Notes: generated from the sequence alone by a model not told the origin. Numbered from the stretch's first letter, positions 15,499 through 40,456 are shown. The stretch is DNA of 64,000 nt from Escherichia coli (GCF_041886205.1 NZ_CP169029.1); one strand, 5' to 3'. Numbers and translations: made by a program.

Positions 15499-15507
15499 TG
15501 TTTTTAA

Positions 15508-15540
15508 TTTATTCAATGAATTTATGTTTCATTGAATAAA
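15508..15540. repeat. perfect 13-bp AT-rich inverted repeat (tttattcaatgaa / ttcattgaataaa, 7-nt loop) 10 bp after the amiC stop
   Basis: Read directly from sequence; lies at the left edge of the accessory island. Confidence 0.5.
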
Positions 15541-15689
15541 TATTATTTACATAAATGTTGAACGATGGTTTTGTGACTGCTGTCGAATATTTGAATATCG
15601 GCTTAAAAAATAAGCCTGTCATCTCTTTTATTAAGCACAATTCCGTGTAAGGTATACGCATTAGTTAATTATCTTGTAACTGTTAAATC

Positions 15690-15744
15690 AGGCAAGGCAA
15701 TGTTTGAAGTAATTATTACTTCTGACATGCCTTGCCTTTTTTTT
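15690..15744 (+). terminator. leader stem-loop plus U8 tract upstream of the antiterminator gene; candidate conditional (RAT-associated) terminator
   Basis: Outer stem aggcaaggca (15690-15699) pairs with tgccttgcct (15728-15737); inner palindrome gaagtaat-t-attacttc (15706-15722); followed by 8 T (15737-15744); ends 12 nt before RBS gggag and ATG 15757. Confidence 0.6.
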
Positions 15745-15756
15745 GGGAGCCATGGA

Positions 15757-16581
15757 ATGATCATCGAAAAAGTCATGAACAATAATTGTGTACAGGCATC
15801 GGTGAACGGACAGGAGGTTATCATTTCTGGGCCTGGCGTTGGTTACAATAAAAAATATGGTATGTCGGTCCCTGAGCATCCTGCAAACCGGATTTTTTAT
15901 GTCAGAAATGAGCAAAAAAATAAACTCTACAAATTGATTGAGCATGTGGGTATTGAGTATATTTTTGTTGCCGAAAAGATAGTGCATTATGCGGAGAGTA
16001 ATCTCGAAAAAAAACTCAATCCATCGCTACTACTGATTCTTGCTGATCACATTTCGAATGCAATATCCCGAGTCGTCTCAGGCATACAAATTAATAATGT
16101 TTTCCTTGAGGAAATCAAAGCGTTGTACAAAGCAGAGTATGCAATAAGTCGTGATGCATTAACAATCATTAATGAGCAATTTAGCGTTCAACTACCGGAT
16201 GATGAGATTGGTTTTATAGCATTGCATATTTTAAATAATTATGAAAATTCAGTTGATTATGAATCAGTAAGGATCATTGAGCTGTCTCAAAAAATCACGG
16301 AGCTTATTGAAGTTGTTTATAACAGAAGGGTGGACAGAAGTTCATTTAACTACTCCAGATTTATGATGCACCTTAAATATTTTTCTAGTCGTGTGTTATG
16401 TAATGAAAAAATAAAACAGAAAAATATTGGTGATATCTATGAGCAGTTTCTTGAAAAAGATTTTCAGTTACAACGTGCCATTCATGAAATTGAAAGATAT
16501 CTGTACGCAACTTTTAAATATGATTTGATTCTGGAAGAGAAACTATATCTTTCTATTCGCATCAAAGTATTAATGGACTAA
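15757..16581 (+). CDS. BglG/LicT-family transcriptional antiterminator (CAT RNA-binding domain + PRD domains), ~274 aa
   Basis: N-terminus MIIEKVMNNNCVQASVNGQEVIISGPGVGYNKK is the typical CAT-domain start; ATG 15757 is preferred over the track start 15700 because of RBS gggag and because 15700 lies inside the leader hairpin. Confidence 0.85.
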   Translation: MIIEKVMNNNCVQASVNGQEVIISGPGVGYNKKYGMSVPEHPANRIFYVRNEQKNKLYKLIEHVGIEYIFVAEKIVHYAESNLEKKLNPSLLLILADHISNAISRVVSGIQINNVFLEEIKALYKAEYAISRDALTIINEQFSVQLPDDEIGFIALHILNNYENSVDYESVRIIELSQKITELIEVVYNRRVDRSSFNYSRFMMHLKYFSSRVLCNEKIKQKNIGDIYEQFLEKDFQLQRAIHEIERYLYATFKYDLILEEKLYLSIRIKVLMD

Positions 16582-16612
16582 TTATACATAACATTTTCAT
16601 GAGATAACCAGT

Positions 16613-18193
16613 ATGAAACAAAAGAAAGCCTGGAGTTTTTTTCAGAGCCTGGGGAAGGCATTTATGTATCCCATCGCTCTGTTAAGTGTATGTGGTATGA
16701 TGTTAGGGCTGGGAAGTGGTTTAGCCAGCGATGATATGGGAAAATTCATTCCAGTGTTGGCTATTCCGTTAATTAAAACCATACTTGATTTTATTGTTAG
16801 CCTTGGTTTGTTTGCCTTCGTTAATTTACCTGTATTGTTTGCGATAGCTATACCTTTGGGATTATTAAAAGAGAAAGATGATAAAGCCTATGGCGCTTTT
16901 TCTGGCTTAATTGGCTTTATGGCGATGCATCTTGGAACGAACTTTTATCTTAAACAGCACGACTTATTGGTAGCTGCTGACCAAATGTCGACACATGGGC
17001 AAACCATCATACTCGGGATCCAGTCCTACAATACCAGCGTGTTGGGTGGGATTGTGGCAGGGTTATTAGTCGCCAGCATGTATAAAAAGATCGTTAACTT
17101 ACGTATTCCTGAATCATTAGGGTTTTATAGTGGCCCACGCCTTGTGCCTATCATTACACTGATTGTGATGAGTGGATTTGGTCTGTTCATTCCTTTTATC
17201 TGGCCGCCATTTTTCAATCTTTTCATGCTCATTGGTCACTGGATTTCAACTTCCGGTCCTGTTGGTTATTTCTTCTATGCTGTTGCCGAACGCGTGACGA
17301 TACCTTTTGGCTTAAATCACTTGGTGACATCAGTTTTCCGCTTTACCCCAATCGGCGGATCGGCAGTGATTGGCGGTGAAGAGTATTACGGCACCCTGAA
17401 CATGTTTATGGCATACGTCAAAGAGAATGCGGTCATTCCGCTGGATTTGGCGGGGAAAATGGAGCAGGGCAAACTGATGATTCAGTATGGTCTGGCTGGA
17501 GCCGCGCTGGCGATGTATCGCACTGCTCATGCTCAAAACAGAAGGGCTATCAAAGCATTGCTGATTTCCGGTGTGCTCACGGTAATTATTGGCGGCGTCA
17601 GCGAGCCGATTGAATTTCTGTTCTTATTTGTCAGCCCGCTGTTGTTTGTCTTCCATGCCTTTATGAATGGATTGGCTAACATGGTTCTGCCATATATGGG
17701 CGTGAAGATGGGCTTTACTGGCGATCTGATTCAATTTATTAGCTTTGGTGTCTTACGTGGCACAAGAACGGGATGGCCATTAGCGGTATGTGTTGAAGTG
17801 GCTTATTTCTTCATTTATTACTTTGTGTTCCGTTGGACCATTCTCAAATTTAACCTGATGACTGTAGGCCGTGAAGAGTCCAGTCCTGTCACGCTGAACG
17901 CTCACGAAGAAACTGCAATAGCTAACATCCCAGTTCATGATAAATCAGAGTTGCAGGCAGCGGAGCAAATGGTTAAGGCTCTGGGTGGTAAAGAAAATAT
18001 TAAATCACTGGATAATTGTGTAACTCGTTTGCGTTTAACTATCGCGGATATGGGATTGATAGATGAGGCTGCAATAAAAAGGGCCGGAGGAATTGCGGTT
18101 GTGAAACTTGATCAAAATACCTTACAAGTCATTATCGGTACAAAAGTCATCGCCCTACGTCGGGATATGGATAATTACATGGGGATATGTTGA
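16613..18193 (+). CDS. PTS system glucose-family EIICB component (MalX/PtsG-like), 526 aa, no EIIA domain
   Basis: Multi-span membrane domain followed by C-terminal EIIB with the cysteine motif NCVTRLRLTIADMG; N-terminus MKQKKAWSFFQSLGKAFMYPIALL resembles PtsG/MalX. Confidence 0.9.
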   Translation: MKQKKAWSFFQSLGKAFMYPIALLSVCGMMLGLGSGLASDDMGKFIPVLAIPLIKTILDFIVSLGLFAFVNLPVLFAIAIPLGLLKEKDDKAYGAFSGLIGFMAMHLGTNFYLKQHDLLVAADQMSTHGQTIILGIQSYNTSVLGGIVAGLLVASMYKKIVNLRIPESLGFYSGPRLVPIITLIVMSGFGLFIPFIWPPFFNLFMLIGHWISTSGPVGYFFYAVAERVTIPFGLNHLVTSVFRFTPIGGSAVIGGEEYYGTLNMFMAYVKENAVIPLDLAGKMEQGKLMIQYGLAGAALAMYRTAHAQNRRAIKALLISGVLTVIIGGVSEPIEFLFLFVSPLLFVFHAFMNGLANMVLPYMGVKMGFTGDLIQFISFGVLRGTRTGWPLAVCVEVAYFFIYYFVFRWTILKFNLMTVGREESSPVTLNAHEETAIANIPVHDKSELQAAEQMVKALGGKENIKSLDNCVTRLRLTIADMGLIDEAAIKRAGGIAVVKLDQNTLQVIIGTKVIALRRDMDNYMGIC

Positions 18194-19401
18194 TGGATAT
18201 TTTTAATACCTCAATTTCTCGTAAAGGAACATATTGCACACAATGGGACTTTTGTGAAGACAGATTTGGTGTAAAAGATGTATTACCATTCTCTATTTCA
18301 GATATGGATCTTCCGATACCGGAAGCTATCATCAGAACATTAAAAAAACGTCTGGAACACCCGATTTTAGGGTACAGTCGTTGGCAGCATGATGACTATC
18401 TGAATTCGATAGTCAATTGGTATCATCAACAATATAAAACAGAGATTCAACCAGAATGGATCACCTATAGCCCAAGCGTGATGTATTCAATATCTAAGGC
18501 AATAGAAATATTGACATTGAATGGAGATAATATTCTCATTTTCACGCCTGTTTATAACGCATTTTTTGATGTGATTAAGCATAATGGTCGAAACATGCTA
18601 ACAACCTCTTTGATGAAAGAAAATGGGAGAGGCTACGTTATCAACTGGCAAGACTTTGAGCTTAAAATTAAAAGCGCGAAGATGGTGTTATTATGTAATC
18701 CTCATAACCCGACAGGAACGGTCTGGTCGGAAGACGATCTTCACAGAATCGCAGCATGCTGTGCAAGGCATAATATTTGGTTATGTTCAGATGAAATACA
18801 TAGTGATTTTGTTTTTAATCATAGTTTCACGTCAGCGCTAACAATAAAAGATGACAAAGTGGTGGTGTTTAATTCGATTTCGAAAACATTTAATGTTCCT
18901 GCGCTAACCGGATCATATATGATTTCAACTGACGATAATTTTAATCATAAGTTCAGAACGATATCGAGGTATCGCGATTTCGTAAACTCCCCATCAGTAC
19001 TGAATGTAATTGCGACCATTGTTGCCTATAATGAATGTGAAGAATGGTTAAAGTCGTTAAAGGTACATATTGCCTCTAACATTCAATTTACTTTGCAGTA
19101 TTTAAATGAAAATATTCCGGAATTGATCGTATGGCCAGCTGAGGGCTGCTATTTTTCGTGGGTTGATTGCTCGGCCCTTGGTTATCCCTTTGATAAATTT
19201 TACCGTCGATTAATTAACGAAGGGAGAGTAGGTATTATGGCGGGGCATGTTTATGGTACTGAAGGAGAGGGCTATCTGCGTCTTAATCTGGCCTGCAGTC
19301 GAGAAAAATTATATATGGGGCTTGCGCGCCTTGCGAGTGTAATTAAAAATATTAATCAGGAAAAAGAAAATGAACAATACGGATCTTATCCATCTTATTA
19401 A
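18187..19401 (+). CDS. PLP-dependent aminotransferase class I/II fold protein, MalY/PatB-like cystathionine beta-lyase (C-S lyase), 404 aa
   Basis: N-terminal RKGTYCTQWDF...FGVKDVLPFSISDMDLP and the SISKTFN lysine motif are typical of MalY/PatB; start overlaps the PTS stop. Confidence 0.85.
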   Translation: MLMDIFNTSISRKGTYCTQWDFCEDRFGVKDVLPFSISDMDLPIPEAIIRTLKKRLEHPILGYSRWQHDDYLNSIVNWYHQQYKTEIQPEWITYSPSVMYSISKAIEILTLNGDNILIFTPVYNAFFDVIKHNGRNMLTTSLMKENGRGYVINWQDFELKIKSAKMVLLCNPHNPTGTVWSEDDLHRIAACCARHNIWLCSDEIHSDFVFNHSFTSALTIKDDKVVVFNSISKTFNVPALTGSYMISTDDNFNHKFRTISRYRDFVNSPSVLNVIATIVAYNECEEWLKSLKVHIASNIQFTLQYLNENIPELIVWPAEGCYFSWVDCSALGYPFDKFYRRLINEGRVGIMAGHVYGTEGEGYLRLNLACSREKLYMGLARLASVIKNINQEKENEQYGSYPSY

Positions 19402-19966
19402 ACGTTTTATGCGTAACGAACATAAAGCAGTAGAAGAGGTTATTGATTCCCCCCTTTCGGAAGTCGCGAATTTAATTAAAATATTACAATCTTGCCAGGG
19501 AAAAGTTGTTTTTATTGGTGTTGGGAAATCTGGCATTATTGCCAGAAAACTTGCTGCAACATTTGCCAGCACCGGAACTCCCTCGTTTTTTGTTCACGGT
19601 ACGGAAGCGGTACACGGCGACCTTGGGATGGTGGCGAAAGACGATGTTGTTATTCTTATTTCAAACAGTGGTGAGACGGCGGAAATCCTGGCGACACTGC
19701 CTAGTTTGAAAAAAATGGGTAATTATTTGATCTCTTTTACCCGCAGTCATCACTCATCGCTTGCGATAAGTTGTGATTTATCTGTTGAAATCCCCGTCAA
19801 AAGTGAGGCGGATAATTTAGGTTTAGCACCGTCATGCTCGTCTACTGTTGTTCTGGTTGTTGGTGATGCGGTGGCGCTTGCACTCTCTGAATTGAAAAAA
19901 TTTACTCGTGCTGATTTCGGCTTATATCATCCAGGAGGTGCACTCGGCATTAAAGCAAATTCATAA
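19370..19966 (+). CDS. single SIS-domain sugar-phosphate isomerase, KpsF/GutQ-like but lacking CBS domains (198 aa)
   Basis: VVFIGVGKSGIIARKLAATFASTGTPSFFVHGTEAVHGDLGMV...ILISNSGET matches the arabinose-5-phosphate isomerase SIS domain; overlaps the preceding gene by about 30 nt. Confidence 0.8.
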   Translation: MNNTDLIHLIKRFMRNEHKAVEEVIDSPLSEVANLIKILQSCQGKVVFIGVGKSGIIARKLAATFASTGTPSFFVHGTEAVHGDLGMVAKDDVVILISNSGETAEILATLPSLKKMGNYLISFTRSHHSSLAISCDLSVEIPVKSEADNLGLAPSCSSTVVLVVGDAVALALSELKKFTRADFGLYHPGGALGIKANS

Positions 19967-20037
19967 TTTCAAAGTATAAATACAGTAACCGGTCACGCCA
20001 TCTTTTGGGGTGGCGTTCATTGAAGTGAGTGTCAGCT

Positions 20038-20985
20038 ATGAAAAATGTTCTGGTCACCGTCCCCAACTTTTCAGCACGCTGTGTTTCCGCCAGCAAGTTG
20101 CTAAGAGAGAATAATTTTAATCTTATTATTAAGAATAATGTGGAGCATCTGCTTAAATCAGAATCCACTGCATTACGAGAATCTATTTGCGCGGTCATCG
20201 CCGGAAAAGATTGTTATCAGGCGGACACGCTATCATTGCTGCCTGGTGTGAAAATAATATCAAGATTCGGGACGGGGATAGATAATATTGATCTTCGTGC
20301 AGCACAACAATCCGGTATTGTAGTCAATAATGCGGTTGGGATTAATTCAAATGCTGTCGCGGAATTTATCATTGGACTTATCTTCGCGAGCATGAGAAAT
20401 ATTCCAGGCAGCTATCATGCGATGCAAAATGGCTACTGGGGTGAGTCGCATGGCTATGAATTACAAGGCAAACGGATTGGCATGGTTGGCTACGGCAATA
20501 TAGGTAAAACCCTGGCAAAAAGGTTATCCGGTTTTGATGTTGAGCTTTTAGCTTATGACAAACAACCCGATTATCAGGTTGCTGACAAAGTTGGAGTTCA
20601 GTTTGTATCAATTGAAGATATCTTTATGCAGTCGCATGTCATCATTGTTCTTTTGCCTTTTTCTCCTGAGCTGGAGAACTTCATTAGTCATAAATATTTG
20701 TCGATGATGCGCAATGGTGCTCTAATCATCAATGCCGCAAGGGGAAAGTTGCTGGATGAGGGCGCTTTACTACAGGTGATTGAAGAACGAAATGTGTTTG
20801 CGGCGCTGGATGTGTTTAGCTCTGAACCGTTGGCGCAATTTAGCCCACTGCTACATGCCAAAAATATCATTACAACGCCGCATATTGCGGCCGCCACCGT
20901 TGAGTCATACCAGCAAACCGGTACACACGTTGCCCAGTCGATAATTGATTACTTCGCAGGAAGGGAGATAAAAAACGTGTTGTGA
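20038..20985 (+). CDS. D-isomer-specific 2-hydroxyacid dehydrogenase family NAD-binding protein (~315 aa)
   Basis: Rossmann motif GKRIGMVGYGNIGKTLAKRL and the family pattern ...LLPFSPELENFIS...; ATG 20038 preferred over the GTG at 20029 (uncertain). Confidence 0.8.
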   Translation: MKNVLVTVPNFSARCVSASKLLRENNFNLIIKNNVEHLLKSESTALRESICAVIAGKDCYQADTLSLLPGVKIISRFGTGIDNIDLRAAQQSGIVVNNAVGINSNAVAEFIIGLIFASMRNIPGSYHAMQNGYWGESHGYELQGKRIGMVGYGNIGKTLAKRLSGFDVELLAYDKQPDYQVADKVGVQFVSIEDIFMQSHVIIVLLPFSPELENFISHKYLSMMRNGALIINAARGKLLDEGALLQVIEERNVFAALDVFSSEPLAQFSPLLHAKNIITTPHIAAATVESYQQTGTHVAQSIIDYFAGREIKNVL

Positions 20986-21011
20986 GTTCAGCGAACGAAG
21001 TTTTTAAATAC

Positions 21012-21047
21012 AAAAAAACCGCAATTTGTGGAACACATTGCGGTTTA
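21012..21047 (-). terminator. rho-independent terminator of the tRNA-fMet operon (8-bp GC-containing stem followed by U7 on the minus strand)
   Basis: Stem accgcaat (21018-21025) pairs with attgcggt (21037-21044); the plus-strand A7 at 21012-21018 reads as U7 after the hairpin on the minus strand; 17 bp from the metV 3' end. Confidence 0.7.
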
Positions 21048-21063
21048 TCAGCATTCTAAGTAT

Positions 21064-21140
<77 letters not shown>

Positions 21141-21172
21141 TCACCGTACTGCTTTATTTCATCAAATTTGAT

Positions 21173-21249
<77 letters not shown>

Positions 21250-21282
21250 TCACCGTACTGCTTTACTTCATCAAATTTTAAT

Positions 21283-21359
<77 letters not shown>

Positions 21360-21365
21360 TCCGTG

Positions 21366-21400
21366 GATGCGCACTATACTCCGCTCGCGTTTTCATGCAA
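21366..21400 (-). promoter_or_regulatory. candidate sigma70 promoter of the metZWV operon (TTGCAT-N16-TATAGT with GC-rich discriminator)
   Basis: Minus-strand reading ggTTGCATgaaaacgcgagcggagTATAGTgcgcatcc immediately upstream of the first tRNA 5' end; the GCGC discriminator is typical of stringently controlled stable-RNA promoters. Confidence 0.55.
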
Positions 21401-21567
21401 CCTTTTTTTTACCCCGATCACGGATTTGGCATGATTTTGAACAAAAACAAATCAGTAAAGCCTATTTTTTGTGCAAAATTTGCGTCAGGGAGAGGCTGCT
21501 CATTTCATTAAACGCGGCGGTTTGTTATCTTCGTTGCGCCTTATTTTTTAACCTGAAGAAGAGAACA

Positions 21568-22665
21568 ATGAAAGGACGTTGGGTAAAGTACCTTCTTATG
21601 GGCACGGTTGTGGCAATGCTTGCCGCCTGCTCTTCCAAACCAACCGATCGCGGACAGCAATATAAAGACGGGAAATTTACCCAGCCTTTCTCTCTGGTGA
21701 ACCAGCCAGATGCCGTTGGCGCGCCGATTAACGCCGGTGATTTTGCCGAGCAAATTAACCATATCCGTAATTCGTCACCGCGTCTGTATGGCAACCAGAG
21801 TAATGTTTATAACGCGGTGCAAGAGTGGCTGCGCGCAGGCGGTGATACCCGCAATATGCGCCAGTTCGGCATTGATGCCTGGCAGATGGAAGGTGCCGAC
21901 AACTATGGTAACGTGCAGTTTACAGGCTATTACACGCCGGTAATTCAGGCGCGCCATACCCGCCAGGGCGAGTTCCAGTATCCTATTTACCGTATGCCGC
22001 CAAAACGTGGTCGTCTGCCGTCTCGTGCGGAGATCTACGCGGGGGCATTGAGTGATAAATATATTCTCGCTTACAGTAACTCCCTGATGGATAACTTCAT
22101 TATGGATGTGCAGGGTAGTGGGTATATCGACTTTGGTGATGGCAGTCCGCTTAACTTTTTCAGCTATGCAGGGAAAAACGGTCATGCCTATCGCAGCATT
22201 GGTAAGGTGCTGATCGACCGTGGCGAAGTGAAAAAAGAAGATATGTCGATGCAGGCGATTCGTCACTGGGGCGAAACACACAGTGAAGCCGAGGTTCGCG
22301 AGCTGCTGGAACAGAACCCGTCTTTCGTTTTCTTTAAACCGCAATCTTTTGCACCGGTGAAAGGGGCAAGTGCGGTGCCGCTGGTTGGCCGTGCTTCTGT
22401 TGCCTCCGATCGTTCAATTATTCCGCCAGGTACAACCTTGCTGGCAGAAGTGCCGCTGCTGGATAATAACGGCAAATTTAACGGTCAGTACGAATTGCGT
22501 CTGATGGTGGCGCTGGATGTCGGTGGCGCAATCAAAGGCCAACACTTCGATATCTATCAAGGGATCGGGCCGGAAGCCGGGCACCGCGCAGGTTGGTACA
22601 ACCACTATGGACGTGTCTGGGTGCTGAAAACCGCCCCGGGCGCAGGTAACGTCTTTAGCGGCTGA
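21568..22665 (+). CDS. mltA: membrane-bound lytic murein transglycosylase A (lipoprotein, 365 aa)
   Basis: Internal ATG at 21568 gives MKGRWVKYLLMGTVVAMLAACSS, a lipoprotein signal with lipobox LAAC; the track ORF is artificially extended upstream into the tRNA genes. Confidence 0.94.
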   Translation: MKGRWVKYLLMGTVVAMLAACSSKPTDRGQQYKDGKFTQPFSLVNQPDAVGAPINAGDFAEQINHIRNSSPRLYGNQSNVYNAVQEWLRAGGDTRNMRQFGIDAWQMEGADNYGNVQFTGYYTPVIQARHTRQGEFQYPIYRMPPKRGRLPSRAEIYAGALSDKYILAYSNSLMDNFIMDVQGSGYIDFGDGSPLNFFSYAGKNGHAYRSIGKVLIDRGEVKKEDMSMQAIRHWGETHSEAEVRELLEQNPSFVFFKPQSFAPVKGASAVPLVGRASVASDRSIIPPGTTLLAEVPLLDNNGKFNGQYELRLMVALDVGGAIKGQHFDIYQGIGPEAGHRAGWYNHYGRVWVLKTAPGAGNVFSG

Positions 22666-31224: not shown

Positions 31225-33000
31225 TTAACGCTTGTACAACGGACCGTAGTTCTGGCAAGCGCGGTAATCCTGGCCTTCAATATCCATGCCGTGCGCAGCC
31301 CAGGCAGAAGGACGATACACTTTGGTCTCTTCAACGTTGTGCATACATACCGGGATACGCAGCATGGAGGCGAGAGTGATAAAGTCTGCGCCAACGTGGC
31401 CGATGGTCAGAACCCCATGGTTAGCGCCCCAGTTCGCCATTACCGAGTACACATCCGTAAACGGCCCTTTACCGGTGAGGCGCGGTGCAAACCAGGTGGT
31501 TGGCCAGGTTGAGTTGGTGCGTTTGTTGAGGATGTCATGCACATCCTTCGGCAATTCCACGCTCCAGCCTTCCGCGATTTGCAGTACCGGTCCCAGGCCT
31601 TTGATGATATTGACACGGGTCATGGTGAACGGGACGCCGCCTTCGGTAAGGAAGCGGGAAGAGTAACCGCCGCCACGGAAGTATTCGTGGATCGCCGGGC
31701 ACCATTCGGTAGCGGCGAGGCAAGCGTCAGCCTCTTGCTGAGAGATTTTCCAGTGCGGCTTCATCGTCGGGTTACCTTCGCTGTCGCGTTGTTTACAGGA
31801 ACCGTCCAGCGCAGCAGAACCTGAGTTGATCAAATGGATGATGCCGTGTTCTGCCAGTCCGTCGAGTTTATGCCCCGTTACACGCTCAATTGCTTCTGGT
31901 GACCAGTAGGTACGCACATCGGCAAATACCTGAGCGGTGCCGGTGAGCTGGTGACCCATTAGCATTGCCACGCCGTTAAGACTGTCGTTTTCGGTCGCCA
32001 CGACAAAGGGTTCGCGCACGCCATTCCAGTCAAATGAACTGTTGAGGATCGCTTCGGCAGTGTCACCATTGGGATATTGATCGGTCCAGTGGCGTTGTCC
32101 CTGGAAGCCCGCAGCGATGGCGTTGTAGCCAAGTGATTCTTCCACGCGACCAATATCGGCCAGTTTGCTGTTGCCTTGCATCATGTCGCGGATACACATC
32201 GCCATCAGTAAACTTTCGCGCAGAACTGCGCGGCTTTGCTCGGCATTGCGTTGATACTGTTTGTTATTTTCATCTTCGCCGTAGCGGAAGTTTTTATCAG
32301 CCCAGGCCAGCGCCATTTCCAGTTCGGCTTCGTCGTAAATCTTCTGATCGATACGGCGACGCAGTTCGGTCATATCCACCGCCTGGACTTTCATTCCCAG
32401 CCAGGATTCAAAGAAGTTGTGATCAACGATGGAACCAGCGATACCCATCGAAACGCCGCCCAGCGACAGATAGCTTTTACCTTTCATGCTGGCGACTGCC
32501 AAACCGGCGCGGGCAAAGCGCAGCAGTTTTTCTTCAACATCGGCTGGAATCGATGTGTCATCGGCATCCTGAACGTCATGACCGTAAATGGAGAATGCCG
32601 GGATGCCTTTCTGGCTGTGAGCTGCCAGAGCCGCTGCCAGGTAAACAGCGCCGGGACGTTCAGTGCCGTTAAAGCCCCAAATGGCTTTCGGGCGGGTTGG
32701 ATCCATGTCGATGGTTTCACTGCCATAGCACCAGCAAGGCGTTACCGTAATGGTGAGGCCTACATTCTGGCTGCTGAATTTTTCTTCGCAAGCAGCGGCT
32801 TCAGCCATACCCGCGATACAGGTATCGGAAATGACACACTCGACGGCAGCTCCGCAGGCATGGCGCAGTTTCTCGGTCAGCAGTGTGGCCGTGGCTTTCG
32901 CCATATTCATTGTTTGTTCTTCAAGCGACTCACGAACACCCATGCGACGACCGTCAATAACCGGGCGGATACCAATTTTCGGTAACGTATTAATTTTCAT
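31225..33000 (-). CDS. fucI: L-fucose isomerase FucI (591 aa)
   Basis: 591 aa; N-terminus [34 protein letters not shown]; RBS gagga. Confidence 0.95.
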
Positions 33001-33082
33001 CAGGATTCCTCATCTCGCTTTATTGGCGCTCTGCTAAGGCGGAGAAAGGAAACCACCGAAGCAGTAGTATTGGTCATTATTT

Positions 33083-33098
33083 GCTAACTCGAGTTAGC
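33083..33098. promoter_or_regulatory. perfect 16-bp palindrome GCTAACTCGAGTTAGC (copy 1), candidate LacI-family operator, about 83 bp upstream of the fucI start
   Basis: Read directly from sequence; the central CG and the 16-bp twofold symmetry are typical of LacI/GalR-family operators. Confidence 0.55.
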
Positions 33099-33321
33099 TT
33101 AGGTTTGTAGGCTTTTTATGCACAACTTTTTTGTTGTTGAAATGTGAGGGGCTTCACGAGAAGTGGTTAAAATACGATCTCTGTCAAATTATTATTTAGC
33201 GGGAGAAAAATAAATTTTACGTATAATCATATGGTTATTAGATTTTAATGGTTATGCATCACAGTTTTAACTCAAATGATTTGGCTAATTTGTATACCTA
33301 AAATAGCTTTAAAAGGCGATC

Positions 33322-33337
33322 GCTAACTCGAGTTAGC
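33322..33337. promoter_or_regulatory. perfect 16-bp palindrome GCTAACTCGAGTTAGC (copy 2), candidate operator about 133 bp upstream of the ABC transporter ATG
   Basis: Identical to copy 1, 239 bp away; a consensus TATAAT hexamer lies at 33222-33227 on the plus strand between the two copies. Confidence 0.55.
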
Positions 33338-33469
33338 AAAATGCGAAGAATAGATTGATGCGATGAATATTTATTCAAAGGTTATTCGTATCACAGTGGA
33401 GATGGCTTTAGTAGCGACGTTTATGCCGTACTTCACATTTTCAGTTTCTGATTATTGAGGAAAGCTGCA

Positions 33470-34969
33470 ATGTCCGAAACATTTTTGCAAATGAAGCATA
33501 TCACCAAACGCTTTCCTGGAGTGTTGGCGCTTAATGACGTGCAATTTTCCCTACGCCGGGGCGAGGTTCATGCATTATTAGGTGAAAATGGTGCAGGAAA
33601 ATCTACCTTAATGAAAATTTTGTCGGGGGTTTATCAACCTGATGAAGGCGAAATAATTTTTGAAGATAAACCAGTCTCATTTTCTGATCCGTTAAGTGCG
33701 CAAAACGTAGGTATTACTATTATTCACCAGGAATTTAATTTATTTCCCGAGCTTACAGTAGAAGAAAATATTTTTATCGGCAGGGAGTTTTGTAAAAAAA
33801 ATCGCTGGCGTCTGGATGAAAAACAGCAACGCCAGGCGACGATTGAAATTTTGCAAAAATTAAATTTGGCGATCAAACCAGATACTCTGGTTGCCGACCT
33901 TACGGTAGCTCAGCAGCAGATGGTAGAAATTGCCAAGGCCATTTCAGTTAACGCCAGGATTCTCATTATGGATGAACCTACTGCGGCGTTAACAGAAACT
34001 GAAATTGAAAGCTTATTTCGCGTCACCCGGTTATTGAAAGAGCAGGGGACCGGCATTGTTTATATCTCCCACCGTCTGGAAGAGTTGGCGCTAATTGCCG
34101 ACCGTGCGACTGTAATGCGTGATGGTCAGTACATCAGCACGGTGGATTATGAGTGCGTAAAAATCAGCGATCTGATTGCCATGATGGTTGGTCGCGATTT
34201 AGGGAATATCTATCCCCGCCGCGAGGCCTTGCAGCAGCGGATTCCGGTTCTGGAGGTAAACGGACTGACGCGCAAAGGCGTCCTGAACGATATTAATTTT
34301 ACGCTTTATCGTGGCGAGATCCTCGGCTTTGCCGGACTGATGGGCGCGGGGCGTACTGAACTTGCGCGTGCGATTTTTGGTGCGGATTCTATTGACAGCG
34401 GAACGCTAAAATTAAATGGTAAGGAAACCGTTATTAAAGATATTTCGGATGCTATTCAGCAGGGAATTAGTTACCTGACGGAAGACCGCAAAAAAGAAGG
34501 GCTGGCGCTGAATTTATCTGTTGAACGAAATATTATGTTAGGAAACTACCCTGAATATTCCGATCGTTTTGGGAATGTCGATTCGCGTCGTTGCCAACAA
34601 ACCAGTGAGGAACAGGTAAAAGCGTTAAGGATTAAAACGCCAAATCTTGAACAGGCGGCATTAAATCTAAGTGGAGGAAACCAGCAGAAAATTATAATTG
34701 CACGTTGGGTGTGTAAAGATACTGATATTTTAATCTTCGATGAACCCACTCGCGGCATTGATGTTGGCGCCAAACTGGAAATCTATGAGTTAATGAATCG
34801 CCTGGTGGCAAAAGGGAAATCAATCATCATGATCTCCTCTGAATTGCCTGAGGTGTTAGGAATGTGCGACCGTATTTTAGTGATGCGCAGTGGTCGAATT
34901 ACCGGCGAACTTAGCGCAAAAGAAGCGACACAAGAAAAAATTATGCAATACGCGACGTTAGAGGATTAA
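33470..34969 (+). CDS. sugar ABC transporter ATP-binding protein with two fused ABC domains (CUT2 family, RbsA/MglA-like), ~499 aa
   Basis: ATG 33470 preferred over TTG 33455 (RBS gaggaaag); Walker A GENGAGKST, signature LSGGNQQK in the second half, and total length indicate a duplicated ABC ATPase. Confidence 0.9.
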   Translation: MSETFLQMKHITKRFPGVLALNDVQFSLRRGEVHALLGENGAGKSTLMKILSGVYQPDEGEIIFEDKPVSFSDPLSAQNVGITIIHQEFNLFPELTVEENIFIGREFCKKNRWRLDEKQQRQATIEILQKLNLAIKPDTLVADLTVAQQQMVEIAKAISVNARILIMDEPTAALTETEIESLFRVTRLLKEQGTGIVYISHRLEELALIADRATVMRDGQYISTVDYECVKISDLIAMMVGRDLGNIYPRREALQQRIPVLEVNGLTRKGVLNDINFTLYRGEILGFAGLMGAGRTELARAIFGADSIDSGTLKLNGKETVIKDISDAIQQGISYLTEDRKKEGLALNLSVERNIMLGNYPEYSDRFGNVDSRRCQQTSEEQVKALRIKTPNLEQAALNLSGGNQQKIIIARWVCKDTDILIFDEPTRGIDVGAKLEIYELMNRLVAKGKSIIMISSELPEVLGMCDRILVMRSGRITGELSAKEATQEKIMQYATLED

Positions 34970-34972
34970 ATT

Positions 34973-35956
34973 ATGACTATCTCTGTAACCTCTCCAGACA
35001 GTAATAATAAGAAAATAAAGATAAATAAAGAACTTTTGATGCGTCTTGCGCCTCTTTTTAGCTTAATTATATTAGTGCTGTTTTTTAGTTTCAGCTCTCC
35101 CTTTTTCTTTAATACCGAAAATATCATGACGATTGCTCTGCAAACGTCGGTTATCGGCATTATGGCCATTGGGGTAACTTTCGTCATTATTACCGCGGGC
35201 ATCGATCTTTCATTGGGCTCCGTGGTGGCTTTTTCTGGTGTCGCCGTGGGGATTTGCGCCACACTGGGCCTGCCGCTGCCAGTGTGTATTATTGCCGGTG
35301 TTTTAGCCGGTGGAATGTGCGGCTATGTGAATGGTTTGTTGGTCACTAAAATGACCATTCCACCATTTATCGCTACCTTGGGCCTGATGATGTCCGTCAG
35401 AGGTATCAATATGGTGATGACCGACGGGCGCGCCATCTATTTTGCCGATTACCCGATGTTCAAAACGCTCGCTCAGGGACGCTTATTTGATGTGCTGCCT
35501 TATCCTGTTTTCTACCTTGTCATTGTAGCGCTTGTCGGCGCTTACATCCTGAAGAAAACCGTCATTGGTCGCTATGTCTATGCCGTAGGCAGTAATGAAG
35601 TTGCTGCTCATCTTTCTGGTATTAAAGTTCAGCGCGTGAAAATTTTCGTCTATGCCTTCTGTGGATTATTAACGGGGATTGCAGGTGTCATTCTGGCATC
35701 TCGTCTCAACTCCGGACAACCGACGGTAGGTGTGGGTTATGAACTGGAAGCTATTGCCGCGGTAGTGATTGGCGGAACCAGCTTAATGGGCGGTATTGGC
35801 ACTATTGGCGGCACAATCATTGGCGCTTTCATTATGAGTGTACTGAAAAATGGCCTCAATTTAATGGGCGTCTCCCAGTTCTGGCAAATGGTCGCGATGG
35901 GCGTCGTTGTGGTCGCTGCCGTTTACCTCGATACATTACGCAAAAAGATTCGTTGA
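34973..35956 (+). CDS. sugar ABC transporter permease (RbsC/AraH-like, 327 aa)
   Basis: Polytopic membrane protein; ATG 4 nt after the ATPase stop with RBS gagga. Confidence 0.88.
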   Translation: MTISVTSPDSNNKKIKINKELLMRLAPLFSLIILVLFFSFSSPFFFNTENIMTIALQTSVIGIMAIGVTFVIITAGIDLSLGSVVAFSGVAVGICATLGLPLPVCIIAGVLAGGMCGYVNGLLVTKMTIPPFIATLGLMMSVRGINMVMTDGRAIYFADYPMFKTLAQGRLFDVLPYPVFYLVIVALVGAYILKKTVIGRYVYAVGSNEVAAHLSGIKVQRVKIFVYAFCGLLTGIAGVILASRLNSGQPTVGVGYELEAIAAVVIGGTSLMGGIGTIGGTIIGAFIMSVLKNGLNLMGVSQFWQMVAMGVVVVAAVYLDTLRKKIR

Positions 35957-36029
35957 CTTAGGCTCCCTGTTTTATCGGGAAACAACTGCCCTGACGTTAA
36001 GGGTGATTCACTCAGAACGGAGTACAACA

Positions 36030-37032: not shown

Positions 37033-38613
37033 ATGCACAACGGTTATTTTCTCGGTGTCGATGTCGGATCGGCCAGTGTCAGGGCAGGCGTTTACAGTGC
37101 CAGTGGCCACAGGCTGGCATTCGCTACTGCGCCCGTCTCCCAGTTTCGCCCTGGCGGCGAGCGTGTCGAACAGTCTTCGGCAGAGATCTGGCAACAAGTT
37201 TGTAAAACGGTGAAAGAGGCGACAGCTTTGGCAGGCATCCCCATTTCCGCAATTCGCTCACTGGGTTTTGACGCTACCTGCTCGCTGGTTGTTCTTGATG
37301 AACAAGGCCAGGGTTTAGCGGTTTCGTCCGGTGGATCTGCGAATCACGACATTATTATGTGGATGGATCATCGTGCAACTGTCGAGACGGCGCAGATTAA
37401 CGCAATGAAGGATCCCGCATTGCGCTACGTTGGCGGCGAAGTGAGCGTCGAGATGGAGTTACCAAAGTTACGTTGGTTGAAGACGCATCTACCGCAAACC
37501 TGGCAGGCCGCTCATCGCTTTTTCGATCTGGCGGATTTTCTGGTCTGGAAAGCAACAGGGCGAGACGTCGCGGGATTATGCACGCTAACGTGTAAATGGA
37601 ATTATCTAGCTCATGAGCAACGCTTTAGCCATAGCTTACTGGAATCGATAGACCTGACCGATATGCTTGAAAGAATTCCTGCCAACATTCTTCCGCCTGG
37701 CGCTGCCGTGGGAACGTTAACCGCCACAGCTGCTGAAGAGTTAGGATTAACGACTAATGTTATCGTGGCCAGTGGCTTGATTGATGCCCATGCCGGTGGC
37801 GTGGCGCTGGCTGGCGCTCACCCATCAGGAACGCTGGCATTGATAAGCGGAACGTCGAACTGCCATATGCTGTGTAGTGAAAAAGAGATATTCACCCCTG
37901 GCGTCTGGGGGCCATACTGGTCGGCCATGTTGCCAAATTACTGGCTAACCGAAGGCGGGCAAAGCGCCGCAGGGGCGCTGGTGGAGTGGACGCTTCAGGA
38001 GTCAGGGGCAAGCGCAAATCTTTTTCACAAGGCGCAGCAACGCGGATGTCATCCGATTCAACTGATTAATGAATGGGTAGCAGCCCTTGAAGCTAACGAG
38101 TCAGAACCCACACGAAATTTACATGTGCTTGCCGATCATCACGGCAACCGTTCGCCACGAGCGCGGCCCGATGCCAGAGGCAGTGTTTATGGCTTAACAC
38201 TGGAGCGTGGTGAAAATCAGCTCGCGCGACTTTATCTTGCGACTTTACAGGCAATAGCCTTTGGCACCAGACATATTATTGAAACTCTGCGGGAAAATGG
38301 GCATACCATTACCCGATTAACATTATGTGGTGGTGCAACGCACAACCCTTTATGGCTACGCGAATATGCAGACGTGACAGGTTGCGATATCCACCTGATG
38401 CAAGAAGAAGATGCCGTTACGTTGGGCGCAGCAATTAGCGGCGCTGTTGCCAGCGGAGCATGGGGGGATTTTACATCTGCGTGTAAAGCAATGGTTGAAG
38501 CCGGAGAGATTATTCAGGTAAATCCACAACGCCGTGAATTTTTAGAGCGTAAATACCGGGTTTACCTGACGCTTTGGGAGCAACAACAGGCGGTTAACCA
38601 ACTGATGCAATAA
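37033..38613 (+). CDS. FGGY-family carbohydrate kinase, pentulose-kinase-like subgroup (~526 aa)
   Basis: Internal ATG at 37033 (RBS cagggagg) gives MHNGYFLGVDVGSASVRAGVY, the FGGY N-terminal motif; GTSNCHM motif mid-protein; the track ORF start at 36913 overlaps the binding-protein gene. Confidence 0.87.
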   Translation: MHNGYFLGVDVGSASVRAGVYSASGHRLAFATAPVSQFRPGGERVEQSSAEIWQQVCKTVKEATALAGIPISAIRSLGFDATCSLVVLDEQGQGLAVSSGGSANHDIIMWMDHRATVETAQINAMKDPALRYVGGEVSVEMELPKLRWLKTHLPQTWQAAHRFFDLADFLVWKATGRDVAGLCTLTCKWNYLAHEQRFSHSLLESIDLTDMLERIPANILPPGAAVGTLTATAAEELGLTTNVIVASGLIDAHAGGVALAGAHPSGTLALISGTSNCHMLCSEKEIFTPGVWGPYWSAMLPNYWLTEGGQSAAGALVEWTLQESGASANLFHKAQQRGCHPIQLINEWVAALEANESEPTRNLHVLADHHGNRSPRARPDARGSVYGLTLERGENQLARLYLATLQAIAFGTRHIIETLRENGHTITRLTLCGGATHNPLWLREYADVTGCDIHLMQEEDAVTLGAAISGAVASGAWGDFTSACKAMVEAGEIIQVNPQRREFLERKYRVYLTLWEQQQAVNQLMQ

Positions 38614-38677
38614 GACAAAAGTTGAAAATACTTTTATGATTGTGATTTGACGTCTGGATGTTAACTGGGAAATACCT

Positions 38678-39676
38678 ATGGCTAAAACAGTAGAGCAGAT
38701 AGCCAGCGACCTGAATTTATCGGTTACGACCGTGCGACTGGTGCTAAATGGAAAAGCGGAACAATATCGAATCAGCGTCAAAACCCAAACGCGTATCAAT
38801 GAATATGTTGAACGCTATGGTTATATCATTAATCATTCCGCTCGCAGCCTTAAGCTTAACAAAACTGATACATTAGGGTTGATTGTTCCCAACATATCCA
38901 ACGTCTTTTTTGCTACGCTGGCAGAAAAACTCGAACAACGCTGTCGACGTTCCGGATATCAACTTACAATCAGTTGCACTTATGATGATGTTGACTATGA
39001 AAATAAATTGACGAAAGCATTTATCGCACGAAATGTAGATGGTCTTTTTATTGTTCCTTCGACGCTGGAAAATCAGCAGCATCATTTACGCAAAATTCGT
39101 AAGCCCATGGTTTTACTCGATCGTGATTTTAAATATACCGATAACGCATTGGTAGAGAGTAATAATATTTCTGGCGGAGAAAAGCTGACGCAAAATATTC
39201 TTGAGGCCGGGCAGACTCCAGTATGGTTTTTGCTGGGAGATGCCGGTTTGCCGAGTATCAGCGATCGTCTGACAGGTTATTTGAATGCGTTGGCAAAAAA
39301 AGGGATTACCCATCGCGATTGGGTGCGGGAAGGTCCGGTAAATACTCCGGAAGGCGGCTATGTCATTATGGAAAAACTCATTGAAGAGCAGGGATGTCCG
39401 CAGGCATTTATCGCCTCGTCTTTGCCTGTGCTTGAAGGCGCTGTCCGCGCGATTCGCGACCGTCTTGGCGCTGTACCGCCAGAAATCAATATTGGCACTT
39501 TCGATGAACATCCTATGCTGGGATTTCTCGCCAACAATGTCTGGTCAATGCAGCAGGATGAAAATGCCTGGGCAGAAAAAGCGTTCGAAATGATGTTAAG
39601 CGCGATCGAAGAAAGACCAGTCAAAAAAACAGTTAAAGTAGAAATGAAATTAATTAAGCGCATAAGAAAAAAATAA
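38678..39676 (+). CDS. LacI/GalR-family transcriptional regulator (332 aa)
   Basis: N-terminal HTH region followed by a periplasmic-binding-protein-like sugar-binding fold (LGLIVPNISNVFFATLAEKLE). Confidence 0.88.
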   Translation: MAKTVEQIASDLNLSVTTVRLVLNGKAEQYRISVKTQTRINEYVERYGYIINHSARSLKLNKTDTLGLIVPNISNVFFATLAEKLEQRCRRSGYQLTISCTYDDVDYENKLTKAFIARNVDGLFIVPSTLENQQHHLRKIRKPMVLLDRDFKYTDNALVESNNISGGEKLTQNILEAGQTPVWFLLGDAGLPSISDRLTGYLNALAKKGITHRDWVREGPVNTPEGGYVIMEKLIEEQGCPQAFIASSLPVLEGAVRAIRDRLGAVPPEINIGTFDEHPMLGFLANNVWSMQQDENAWAEKAFEMMLSAIEERPVKKTVKVEMKLIKRIRKK

Positions 39677-39808
39677 TAATCGCCAAAAGATATCAGGCTA
39701 CTGAACAATGATATTCAGTGGCCTCCCCTTACTAAAAATAACCCCGTCTTCATTTGCGGTGCTGTTTTACGCAACAAGGCGAGCTGAAACTGTATCTGGA
39801 GAATAGAA

Positions 39809-40456
39809 ATGGAAAGAACACGTTTATCCCGTGAAATAATTGAAACCTGTCTGGAAATGACGCGCCTTGGGTTAAATCAGGGGACAGCGGGGAATGTCAG
39901 CACACGTTTTGAAAACGGCATGTTGATTACTCCCAGCGGTATTCCTTATGAAAGAATGACGGAGAATATGATTGTCTATGTTGATGGCAACGGCAAATAC
40001 GAAGAAGGTAAGATTCCTTCCAGCGAGTGGCGTTTCCATATGGCAGCCTATCAAAGCAGACCGGATGCCAACGCGGTTGTTCACAATCATGCCGTTCATT
40101 GCACGGCAGTTTCCATTCTTAACCGACCGATCCCCGCTATTCACTACATGATTGCGGCGGCGGGCGGTAATTCTATTCCTTGCGCGCCTTATGCGACCTT
40201 TGGAACACGTGAACTTTCTGAACATGTTGCGCTGGCTCTCAAAAATCGTAAGGCAACTTTGTTACAACATCATGGGCTTATCGCTTGTGAGGTGAATCTG
40301 GAAAAAGCGTTATGGCTGGCGCATGAAGTTGAAGTGCTGGCGCAACTTTACCTGACGACCCTGGCGATTACGGACCCGGTGCCAGTGCTGAGCGATGAAG
40401 AGATTGCCGTAGTGCTGGAGAAATTCAAAACCTATGGGTTACGGATTGAAGAGTAA
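39809..40456 (+). CDS. fucA: L-fuculose-phosphate aldolase (class II aldolase, 215 aa); N-terminal ~70 residues appear divergent from the K-12 allele
   Basis: 215 aa; residues from about 75 onward (SSEWRFHMAAYQSRPDANAVVHNHAVHCTAVSIL...KFKTYGLRIEE) match E. coli FucA as recalled; the N-terminal part carries many substitutions. Confidence 0.9.
   Translation: MERTRLSREIIETCLEMTRLGLNQGTAGNVSTRFENGMLITPSGIPYERMTENMIVYVDGNGKYEEGKIPSSEWRFHMAAYQSRPDANAVVHNHAVHCTAVSILNRPIPAIHYMIAAAGGNSIPCAPYATFGTRELSEHVALALKNRKATLLQHHGLIACEVNLEKALWLAHEVEVLAQLYLTTLAITDPVPVLSDEEIAVVLEKFKTYGLRIEE

Follow-up and report, generated by a model that had tools for sequence, protein, structure and literature searches.

What operons of the malXY kind import, and why a C–S lyase and an arabinose-5-phosphate isomerase accompany the sugar transporter in such loci, has been a question since the description of malXY in 1991, and it is not first raised here. 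The operon studied here, in a 64,000-nucleotide stretch of Escherichia coli DNA (GCF_041886205.1 NZ_CP169029.1; hereafter, the window), encodes an antiterminator, a PTS EIICB, a lyase, an isomerase, and a dehydrogenase (Table 1). A first-pass annotation had taken the last three for an unusual enzyme set; the gene set is, in fact, already known as the c3405–c3410 operon of PAI-CFT073-metV in the uropathogen CFT073, and the SIS protein is an allele of the purified and crystallised c3406. The coordinates and family assignments proposed for the three ORFs agree with profile searches and with the RefSeq annotation, which lists the identical five genes. We consider it probable that this "metV-island" PTS operon is best explained as a self-contained module for carbohydrate uptake that was acquired horizontally and is of the malX–malY type, with its closest non-enterobacterial relatives in Clostridia. 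New in this analysis are the RAT/terminator leader, the purifying selection on the five genes, and the loss of six of the seven MalT-contact residues in the lyase.

Table 1. Features of the island and its borders, in coordinates of the window.
Feature	Position	Strand	Description or basis
Whole island	15499..21063		from just after the amiC stop codon to 3′ end of tRNA-Met metV; in place of the 73-bp K-12 amiC–metV spacer
RAT (ribonucleic antiterminator) element	15674..15694	+	TTGTAACTGTTAAATCAGGCA; motif search
Intrinsic terminator	15690..15745	+	hairpin AGGCAAGGCA...TGCCTTGCCT and U8 tract; folding, inverted repeat I13
LicT/BglG-family PRD antiterminator, 274 aa	15757..16581	+	NF046042 LicT; RefSeq start
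Glucose-family PTS EIICB, MalX-like, without EIIA domain, 526 aa	16613..18193	+	TIGR02004 malX
MalY/PatB-family PLP-dependent beta C–S lyase, 402 aa	18193..19401	+	TIGR04350
Predicted single-SIS-domain arabinose-5-phosphate isomerase, allele of c3406, 198 aa	19370..19966	+	homology to 5UQI/5VHU
D-isomer-specific 2-hydroxyacid dehydrogenase, short form without ACT domain, 315 aa	20038..20985	+	profile search; 1WWK alignment
Hairpin between dehydrogenase stop codon and metV	21018..21045		AACCGCAAT...ATTGCGGTT; read directly from the sequence
metV, metW, metZ, three tRNA-fMet genes marking the insertion site	21064..21359	-	ARAGORN, Rfam, K-12 annotation

Extraintestinal pathogenic E. coli is already documented to carry this locus as an accessory operon. 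In the published record, c3405–c3410 is named "PTS system, maltose/glucose specific", lies inside PAI-CFT073-metV, and occurs in all four UPEC genomes compared, and the metV island is linked to uropathogenicity in the title of a publication. We found the operon in 1683 of 5426 complete E. coli genomes. Lloyd in 2009 and Mosberg in 2011 are said to have observed lower fitness in mouse urinary infection upon deletion of the operon.

The region between 15.5 and 21.06 kb of the window is a low-GC island (0.39–0.40 vs about 0.52), and comparison with K-12 shows divergence from 15500 and rejoining at the 3′ end of metV. A repeat search revealed neither direct repeats flanking the island nor att-like duplications of the tRNA 3′ end, the annotation of the island contains no integrase gene, and an Rfam scan of the island (E ≤ 1) returned three tRNAs only, with no RAT match. 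The hairpin preceding metV is followed by T7 on the minus strand and is therefore likely, as judged from its layout, to be the metZWV terminator; it is unlike the metV terminator of K-12 and possibly also forms the end of the island operon.

The five genes are tightly spaced (from antiterminator to dehydrogenase, the first and last junctions are gaps of 31 and 71 nt, and the two between them are overlaps of 1 and 32 nt, respectively), their order in the cassette is kept in Citrobacter and Clostridioides difficile, and their dN/dS values are 0.05–0.21, all of which argues for a real operon rather than a chance array of ORFs. Purifying selection acts on all five genes, and the same dN/dS values rule out a reading of the locus as a decaying remnant. 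The operon is nevertheless dispensable, since some strains carry a frameshifted antiterminator gene or an IS1 inside the lyase gene. The cassette of antiterminator, EIICB, lyase, and SIS protein is also found in Citrobacter, Enterobacter, and C. difficile (CD3027–CD3031), occupying three differing chromosomal sites in E. coli, Citrobacter, and Enterobacter, with EIICB identities of 68–84% across the four taxa. These comparative data define a four-gene core.

The leader of the operon contains a RAT element that overlaps the 5′ arm of an intrinsic terminator. The RAT is the single match in the 64-kb window, where 0.01 is expected by chance, and the motif recurs at the matching position in Citrobacter and other E. 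coli loci. The terminator, spotted by eye and missed by a simple terminator scan (loop >8 nt), was confirmed by folding, with an MFE of −31.6 kcal/mol and z = −5.4, and none of 200 shuffles folded as well. The antiterminator matches NF046042 LicT at 230 bits over profile positions 1–271 of 273 and comprises a CAT RNA-binding domain and two PRDs, as indicated by the LicT model and by PDB matches to the LicT PRD and a BglG-family CAT-PRD1; its Citrobacter ortholog contains Pfam CAT_RBD and PRD. A 293-aa ORF for this protein, beginning at 15700, was rejected as an artefact, its start falling inside the terminator. If the regulatory histidines of LicT are, as we take them to be, H100, H159, H207, and H269, the residues aligned to the first three are kept and Arg is aligned to the fourth (LYLSIRIK vs LYLTIHIE), so that HPr control may differ from that of LicT; there are members of the PRD antiterminator family without HPr control. 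Judging from the family, transcription would start in the 258-nt leader and halt at the terminator unless the overlapping RAT is occupied by the antiterminator. On the model of BglG and LicT, the idle EIIB would phosphorylate and thereby inactivate the antiterminator, which would be freed while EIICB transports its substrate. The switch may lend itself to a reporter screen for the inducer.

The transporter shows EIIC and EIIB domain matches; its translation contains the G-[IV]-[ST]-E-P motif of EIIC, as GVSEP, and the phosphorylatable Cys of EIIB, in DNCVTRLR, and its 526 residues leave no room for an EIIA domain. It is 43% identical to K-12 MalX and scores below the MalX cut-offs (TIGR02004, 537.7 vs 632.2 bits; NF007509, 522 vs 665), and by these scores it is assigned to a subfamily related to, yet distinct from, MalX. 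The pairing of such an EIICB with a C–S lyase, thought at first to be unusual, proved to be widespread: among the matches listed, EIICB immediately precedes the lyase at 68 of the 80 loci surveyed, from many phyla, the matches of this contig scan being mostly MalY-level relatives and the numbers of SIS-containing cassettes a lower bound.

The lyase (ORF 18187–19401, RefSeq start 18193) exceeds the cut-off of the PatB-family C–S lyase model TIGR04350 (368.9 vs 340 bits), and its best PDB match is MalY (1D2F, E = 3.5e-88). Its PLP lysine, the presence of which the first-pass annotation had left to be checked, is Lys231, aligned to Lys233 of MalY; this residue and the NPxNPTG and SDEIH motifs are invariant in the ortholog alignment, and the dN/dS of the gene is 0.13. 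Cysteine desulfhydrase or C–S lyase activity has been reported for both E. coli MalY and the C. difficile ortholog.

The SIS protein and the chain in PDB 5UQI/5VHU share 97.5% identity, CFT073 c3406 being identical to the 5UQI chain, and the five differences of the SIS protein from c3406 all fall in residues 12–38. The protein matches the KdsD model (E = 3.2e-58) over profile positions 36–201 of 328, lacks the CBS pair, as had been proposed, and scores 191.8 against TIGR00393 (cut-off 203.7). It had been called truncated; instead, it belongs to a natural single-domain subgroup of arabinose-5-phosphate isomerases, with 3ETN and 3FXA as relatives and the crystallised c3406 (PDB 5UQI) as a member, the latter published under the description "unique arabinose 5-phosphate isomerase". 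The predicted assignment of the island protein as such an isomerase draws its activity from that description. A catabolic role of the isomerase is suggested by the Firmicutes single-SIS homologs, which adjoin either a sugar kinase and a transporter or PTS and aldolase-family genes.

The dehydrogenase (ORF 20029–20985, RefSeq start 20038) has PGDH TIGR01327 as its best model, at 222 bits vs a cut-off of 454, and scores 159 vs 404 with NF008759. Its alignment with 1WWK shows the NAD-binding GxGxxG motif, here GYGNIG, and the catalytic triad, made up of the Arg in INAARG, the Glu in SSEP, and the His in TPHIA, and its orthologs contain Pfam 2-Hacid_dh and 2-Hacid_dh_C. Identity as a true SerA is ruled out by score, domain content (no ACT/ASB), and the context of its relatives, the nearest of which outside the cassette lie in a cluster with TRAP-transporter, aldolase-family, and sugar-kinase genes. 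The dehydrogenase is accessory to the cassette, being linked to it in three lineages and absent from the C. difficile and Enterobacter cassettes.

In the uptake module that we favor, the MalX-like EIICB would draw on the chromosomal EIIA-Glc (Crr) to import and phosphorylate a gluco-type carbohydrate or glycoconjugate, and the PLP lyase, by analogy to its paralog MalY and the C. difficile ortholog, may beta-eliminate a cysteine- or serine-type amino-acid moiety. The SIS enzyme would interconvert arabinose-5-phosphate and ribulose-5-phosphate, as published in the description of the 97.5%-identical CFT073 protein, and would most likely drain a pentose-phosphate product into the pentose-phosphate pathway, while the accessory dehydrogenase would reduce a 2-oxo acid. 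The earlier statement that the substrate could not be inferred from the sequence was borne out. The EIICB, the isomerase, and the dehydrogenase each fall short of the cut-off of the nearest NCBIfam equivalog, so that exact specificities are not transferable. Literature searches for a substrate of the gene set or of malXY found none, and the operon genes include no glycoside hydrolase or other enzyme that would join a hexose-type PTS product to arabinose-5-phosphate.

A more specific reading builds on the glycosylated or S-linked amino acid suggested in the first-pass annotation: the catabolism of, for example, an S- or O-glycosyl cysteine or serine, in which EIICB phosphorylates the sugar, the lyase releases pyruvate and ammonia, the dehydrogenase reduces the 2-oxo acid, and the SIS protein isomerises the sugar phosphate. 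The ancient and very widespread EIICB–lyase pairing suggests that transporter and lyase are metabolically linked, the catalytic residues of the lyase are intact under purifying selection, cysteine S-conjugates are cleaved by the lyase family (as named in PDB entries), and three lineages have a dehydrogenase linked to the cassette. However, the activity given in the published description of the SIS protein is on arabinose-5-phosphate and ribulose-5-phosphate, not on a hexose phosphate, and a glyco-amino-acid route gives no pentose phosphate; furthermore, a dehydrogenase that C. difficile and Enterobacter do without in their cassettes cannot perform a core step, and literature searches found no glyco-amino-acid compound or pathway of such a kind. 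We therefore regard this reading as unlikely. With a similarly low probability, the EIICB–lyase pair together with the isomerase could constitute an unrecognised catabolic route, in which a PTS-phosphorylated glyco-amino-acid or amino-sugar-acid conjugate is cleaved by the PLP lyase to yield a pentose phosphate. If true, such a route would give a physiological substrate to E. coli MalX/MalY, to C. difficile CD3027–31, and to the UPEC metV-island operon. D-Glucosaminate-like amino-sugar acids, Kdo-8-P, O-glycosyl serine, and Amadori compounds were also considered as substrates, and none found specific support.

The isomerase might alternatively serve an anabolic, virulence-related purpose, furnishing extra arabinose-5-phosphate for the Kdo of LPS and group 2 capsule during import of a glucose-like sugar. 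Its product is the Kdo precursor, and the presence of the island in four of the four UPEC genomes compared, together with the uropathogenicity named in the publication title, would fit a contribution to the urinary-infection fitness effect. We nonetheless hold this to be very unlikely, as C. difficile and other Firmicutes have the cassette too yet make no LPS, and E. coli already possesses KdsD and GutQ. Against it, too, Mosberg in 2011 reportedly saw no drop in colonisation after deletion of c3406 alone.

The first-pass annotation had also offered the lyase as a regulator of MalT. The MalT-interface residues of MalY, A84, C181, D182, E185, S218, N219, and A221, correspond in the island lyase to E, E, D, H, L, T, and K, so that only D182 of the seven is retained, and this suggestion thus found no support. 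That the lyase is mainly a MalT anti-activator, with the isomerase making an arabinose-5-phosphate signal and the enzymes tuning other sugar regulons rather than serving catabolism, has in its favor the published sequestration of MalT by K-12 MalY, a regulatory role hypothesised in the literature for the isomerase in Gram-positives, and the precedent of gutQ in the glucitol operon, yet it is the most improbable of the readings, given this interface, the reported inability of V. furnissii MalY with just two of these changes to repress, the catalytic lysine and active-site motifs conserved under purifying selection, and the occurrence of MalY-type lyases beside PTS genes in bacteria reported to have no MalT (L. 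sakei).

The preferred uptake module is worth comparing with known systems. It shares with the bgl operon of E. coli, and with LicT-bglPH and SacY of B. subtilis, a PRD antiterminator and a RAT overlapping an intrinsic terminator, placed as for bglG upstream of the antiterminator gene, but it lacks a phospho-beta-glucosidase and has Arg in place of the fourth regulatory histidine of LicT. The E. coli glucitol (srl/gut) PTS operon likewise contains, in gutQ, an arabinose-5-phosphate isomerase without an obvious catabolic role; the SIS domains of GutQ, KdsD, and KpsF are homologous to the island protein, whereas their C-terminal CBS pair is missing from it, and the PTS of the gutQ operon is of the glucitol rather than the glucose/maltose family. 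In K-12 malI–malXY, a glucose-family EIICB without EIIA is also followed directly by a PLP beta C–S lyase; MalX and MalY are, however, only 43 and 37% identical to the island proteins, MalI is a repressor in contrast to the LicT-type antiterminator, the isomerase and dehydrogenase are additions of the island, and the MalT-binding surface of K-12 MalY is not kept. Closer is C. difficile CD3027–CD3031 ("putative glucose–maltose PTS"), in which antiterminator, EIICB, lyase, and single-SIS protein follow the order of the island under RAT-based control, the last three at 68, 50, and 52% identity, differing in having its own EIIA-Glc gene, in lacking the dehydrogenase, and in its RAT/terminator, which is quadruplicated and located between the antiterminator and EIICB genes. 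Its MalY (CD3029), described as part of a PTS operon CD3027–CD3030, acts as a cysteine desulfhydrase; its gene, malY, is reportedly essential and, in biofilm, strongly induced. Closest of all is CFT073 c3405–c3410, with the same five genes, order, and site adjoining amiC, and protein identities of 94.5% (antiterminator), 96.8% (EIICB), 85.4% (lyase), 97.5% (SIS), and 95.9% (dehydrogenase). Nevertheless, DNA identity is only 92.4%, dS is 0.34–0.52 for antiterminator, EIICB, and lyase vs about 0.09–0.13 for SIS, dehydrogenase, and amiC, the lyases end in unlike C-termini (402 aa in the window vs 391 aa in CFT073), and a type VI secretion cluster separates the CFT073 operon from metV, which the operon in the window directly abuts.

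The five genes lying between amiC and metV in the window form an allele of an operon that has already been published. In uropathogenic Escherichia coli CFT073, the same set of five genes adjoins amiC, with a type VI secretion cluster occupying the remaining island as far as metV, and c3405-c3410 within PAI-CFT073-metV were labelled 'PTS system, maltose/glucose specific' by Bryant et al. (PMC2831201). The block is present at a coverage of at least 80% in 1683 of 5426 complete E. coli genomes. The CFT073 protein c3406 is the topic of a study by Mosberg et al., in which c3405-c3410 are reported to have been treated as one operon serving an unknown carbohydrate, c3406 to have arabinose-5-phosphate isomerase (API) activity, and deletion of c3405-c3410 to lower fitness in mouse urinary infection, with no defect on deletion of c3406 only. 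The chain in PDB entries 5UQI and 5VHU matches this SIS protein at every residue, whose counterpart in the window differs from it at 5 of 198 residues, all within positions 12-38. As an allele of c3406, the isomerase, described as truncated in the first-pass annotation, is instead a characterised member of a natural group of single-domain APIs, with relatives in Bacteroides (3ETN) and Listeria (3FXA); the oddest-looking protein of the operon had already been purified and crystallised.

The island occupies 5.56 kb of the E. coli chromosome between amiC (end at 15498) and metV/W/Z, and has a GC content of 0.39-0.40 versus about 0.52 in its surroundings. Comparison with K-12 places the left border right after the amiC stop codon and the right border at the metV 3' end, the island being found in place of a 73-bp spacer in K-12. 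No integrase gene is annotated within the island, and direct repeats flanking it were sought and are not present. Its extreme left end, right past the amiC stop, contains a perfect 14-bp inverted repeat (ATTTATTCAATGAA N7 TTCATTGAATAAAT; 15507-15541), a candidate operator or AT-rich amiC terminator; a half-good CRP-like site (TGTGA-N6-TCGAA) was read by eye at about 15573-15588. On the other side, a 459-aa ORF (21286-22665) runs antisense across the tRNA-Met genes, and homology with an annotated record puts the mltA start at about 21567. Farther along the window, GC content is below the average at 32000-36000 and 38000-40000 (0.45-0.46). All five island genes point in the same direction; in gene order, 31 nt separate the first two, the next two junctions overlap by 1 nt and 32 nt, and 71 nt separate the last two.

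Coordinates of the island genes and the adjacent tRNA genes in the window
Feature	Position	Strand
LicT/BglG-type antiterminator	15757-16581	
MalX-like EIICB	16613-18193	
MalY/PatB C-S lyase	18193-19401	
Single-SIS KpsF/GutQ-type protein, 198 aa	19370-19966	
D-2-hydroxyacid dehydrogenase, 315 aa	20038-20985	
metV/W/Z, three initiator tRNA-Met genes	21064-21359	minus

The leader contains a motif resembling a ribonucleic antiterminator (RAT), TTGTAACTGTTAAATCAGGCA, at 15674-15694, the sole match within the 64-kb window (chance expectation, 0.01). A long hairpin with a trailing U8 tract (15690-15745) uses the 3' half of this motif as its 5' arm and has a predicted MFE of -31.6 kcal/mol (z = -5.4); the same motif occurs at the equivalent position in Citrobacter. 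This arrangement is the classic design of BglG/LicT antitermination, placed upstream of the antiterminator gene itself. A 293-aa ORF beginning at 15700 was rejected, its first codon lying inside the terminator; the true start is the ATG at 15757, with GGGAG just before it. On alignment, the antiterminator keeps His at the positions of LicT H100, H159, and H207 and has Arg in place of H269. Between the antiterminator and EIICB genes of Clostridioides difficile (locus L004, 5974-6392), four tandem 104-nt units of 92% identity each contain a full RAT (GGATTGTAACTGGTTAAGCAGGCAAAACC), a terminator hairpin, and a T-run, so that this leader would present four conditional terminators in series, compared with one in E. 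coli and Citrobacter.

The coordinates and family assignments previously proposed for the lyase, SIS protein, and dehydrogenase are borne out by ORFs, annotation, and profile matches. The lyase scores above the PatB-family cut-off, aligns over its full length with MalY (1D2F), and retains the PLP lysine (Lys231, corresponding to MalY Lys233) and the NPHNPTG and SDEIH motifs. The dehydrogenase retains GxGxxG and the Arg/Glu/His triad; because it scores far under the PGDH cut-offs and is devoid of a regulatory domain, and because its closest relatives beyond the cassette (43%) are clustered with a TRAP transporter, a DHDPS-family gene, and sugar kinases, it is more likely a 2-keto-(sugar-)acid reductase than a serine-pathway enzyme. 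Single-SIS homologs in Firmicutes, 52-60% identical, occur in catabolic gene settings: with a LacI regulator, PfkB kinase, and MFS transporter, and an RbsD/FucU mutarotase nearby, in Mammaliicoccus (L094, 5350-9850), and divergent from a PTS operon also coding DHDPS-family and KDPG-aldolase-family (Pfam Aldolase) proteins in lactobacilli (Lactiplantibacillus and Companilactobacillus; L093 and L095, 3000-7600). These settings favour a catabolic role of the isomerase, converting arabinose-5-phosphate to ribulose-5-phosphate, over one in Kdo synthesis; they do not account for a step from a MalX-type PTS product to arabinose-5-phosphate. The role of API in Gram-positives has been termed unknown, possibly regulatory (PMC5758725); the single-SIS clusters there look like uncharacterised routes via arabinose-5-phosphate, possibly starting, we speculate, from Kdo or D-arabinose.

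Comparison of the window and CFT073 alleles gives dN/dS values of 0.05-0.21 for the five genes (0.13 for the lyase), showing purifying selection. The dS values are 0.34-0.52 for the antiterminator, EIICB, and lyase (15757-19401), versus about 0.09-0.13 for the SIS protein and dehydrogenase (19370-20985) and the flanking amiC. Divergence is greatest in the lyase (85% identity), which also differs at its C-terminus, with 402 aa in the window versus 391 aa in CFT073, where the 32-nt lyase/SIS overlap is absent. The island is thus a mosaic, and the split dS values, together with the divergence and altered C-terminus of the lyase, suggest that recombination has brought together two old allelic lineages. 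Some E. coli/Shigella records (P0046-P0051) show one 550-592-aa ORF with aminotransferase and SIS domains, a lyase-isomerase fusion; because A-runs occur inside the overlap (19355-19401), these ORFs may be frameshift or sequencing artefacts, not true fusions. Among island-positive strains, the antiterminator is frameshifted in LHM10-1 (L001, 9258-10081) and the lyase is split by IS1 in the pigeon strains PT62 and LP5-1; therefore, the operon is undergoing inactivation in part of the population.

As to function, catabolism of a sugar conjugate, as envisaged in the first-pass annotation, is possible but unsupported. The other suggestion, that the MalY-like protein acts as a regulator of MalT, is disfavoured. 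A cryo-EM study of MalT-MalY places A84, C181, E185, S218, N219, and A221 at the interface on the basis of mutagenesis, and Vibrio furnissii MalY with D182C and S218V gives no repression (PMC10427625). At MalY positions 84, 181, 182, 185, 218, 219, and 221, the residues of the island lyase are E, E, D, H, L, T, and K, respectively, and because D182 alone is retained, binding to MalT via the known surface seems unlikely.

Beyond E. coli/Shigella, the nearest lyase homologs are found in Citrobacter (67%), followed by metagenome proteins (50-57%) and those of C. difficile and Terrisporobacter (50%). Citrobacter has the full five-gene set at another chromosomal site, whereas Enterobacter sp. ENT03 has antiterminator-EIICB-lyase-SIS between nfo and fruA without the dehydrogenase, and C. 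difficile has antiterminator-EIICB-lyase-SIS-EIIA(Glc). One Firmicute-like contig encodes the antiterminator, EIICB, lyase, and SIS protein, and another contig EIICB-lyase-SIS-dehydrogenase, its dehydrogenase being just 48% identical. Over these cassettes, identities to the window proteins are 68-84% (EIICB), 52-85% (SIS), 50-67% (lyase), and 36-78% (antiterminator). From these occurrences, the core is a four-gene cassette, with the dehydrogenase as a recurrent accessory. In C. difficile, CD3027-CD3030 are regarded as a 'putative glucose-maltose PTS', and malY is reportedly essential, the top induced gene in biofilm, and the source of a protein with cysteine desulfhydrase activity in vitro (PMC6143707, PMC5767170).

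Our literature search found no paper assigning a substrate to the operon or to malXY, and the natural ligand of MalY has been termed unclear (PMC5845896); the substrate question, for this operon and for malXY-type pairs generally, is real but long recognised. The combination of EIICB and lyase itself is not unusual, contrary to the initial impression: in a lyase-alignment scan of species-representative genomes, a MalX-like EIICB gene lies immediately upstream of the lyase in 68 of 80 loci among the matches listed, which span Enterobacterales, Vibrionaceae, Aeromonas, Firmicutes, Fusobacterium, Brachyspira, and Streptomyces. The pair therefore represents the old, widespread malX-malY arrangement, of which the window island is a diverged version, with 43% identity to K-12 MalX and 37% to MalY.
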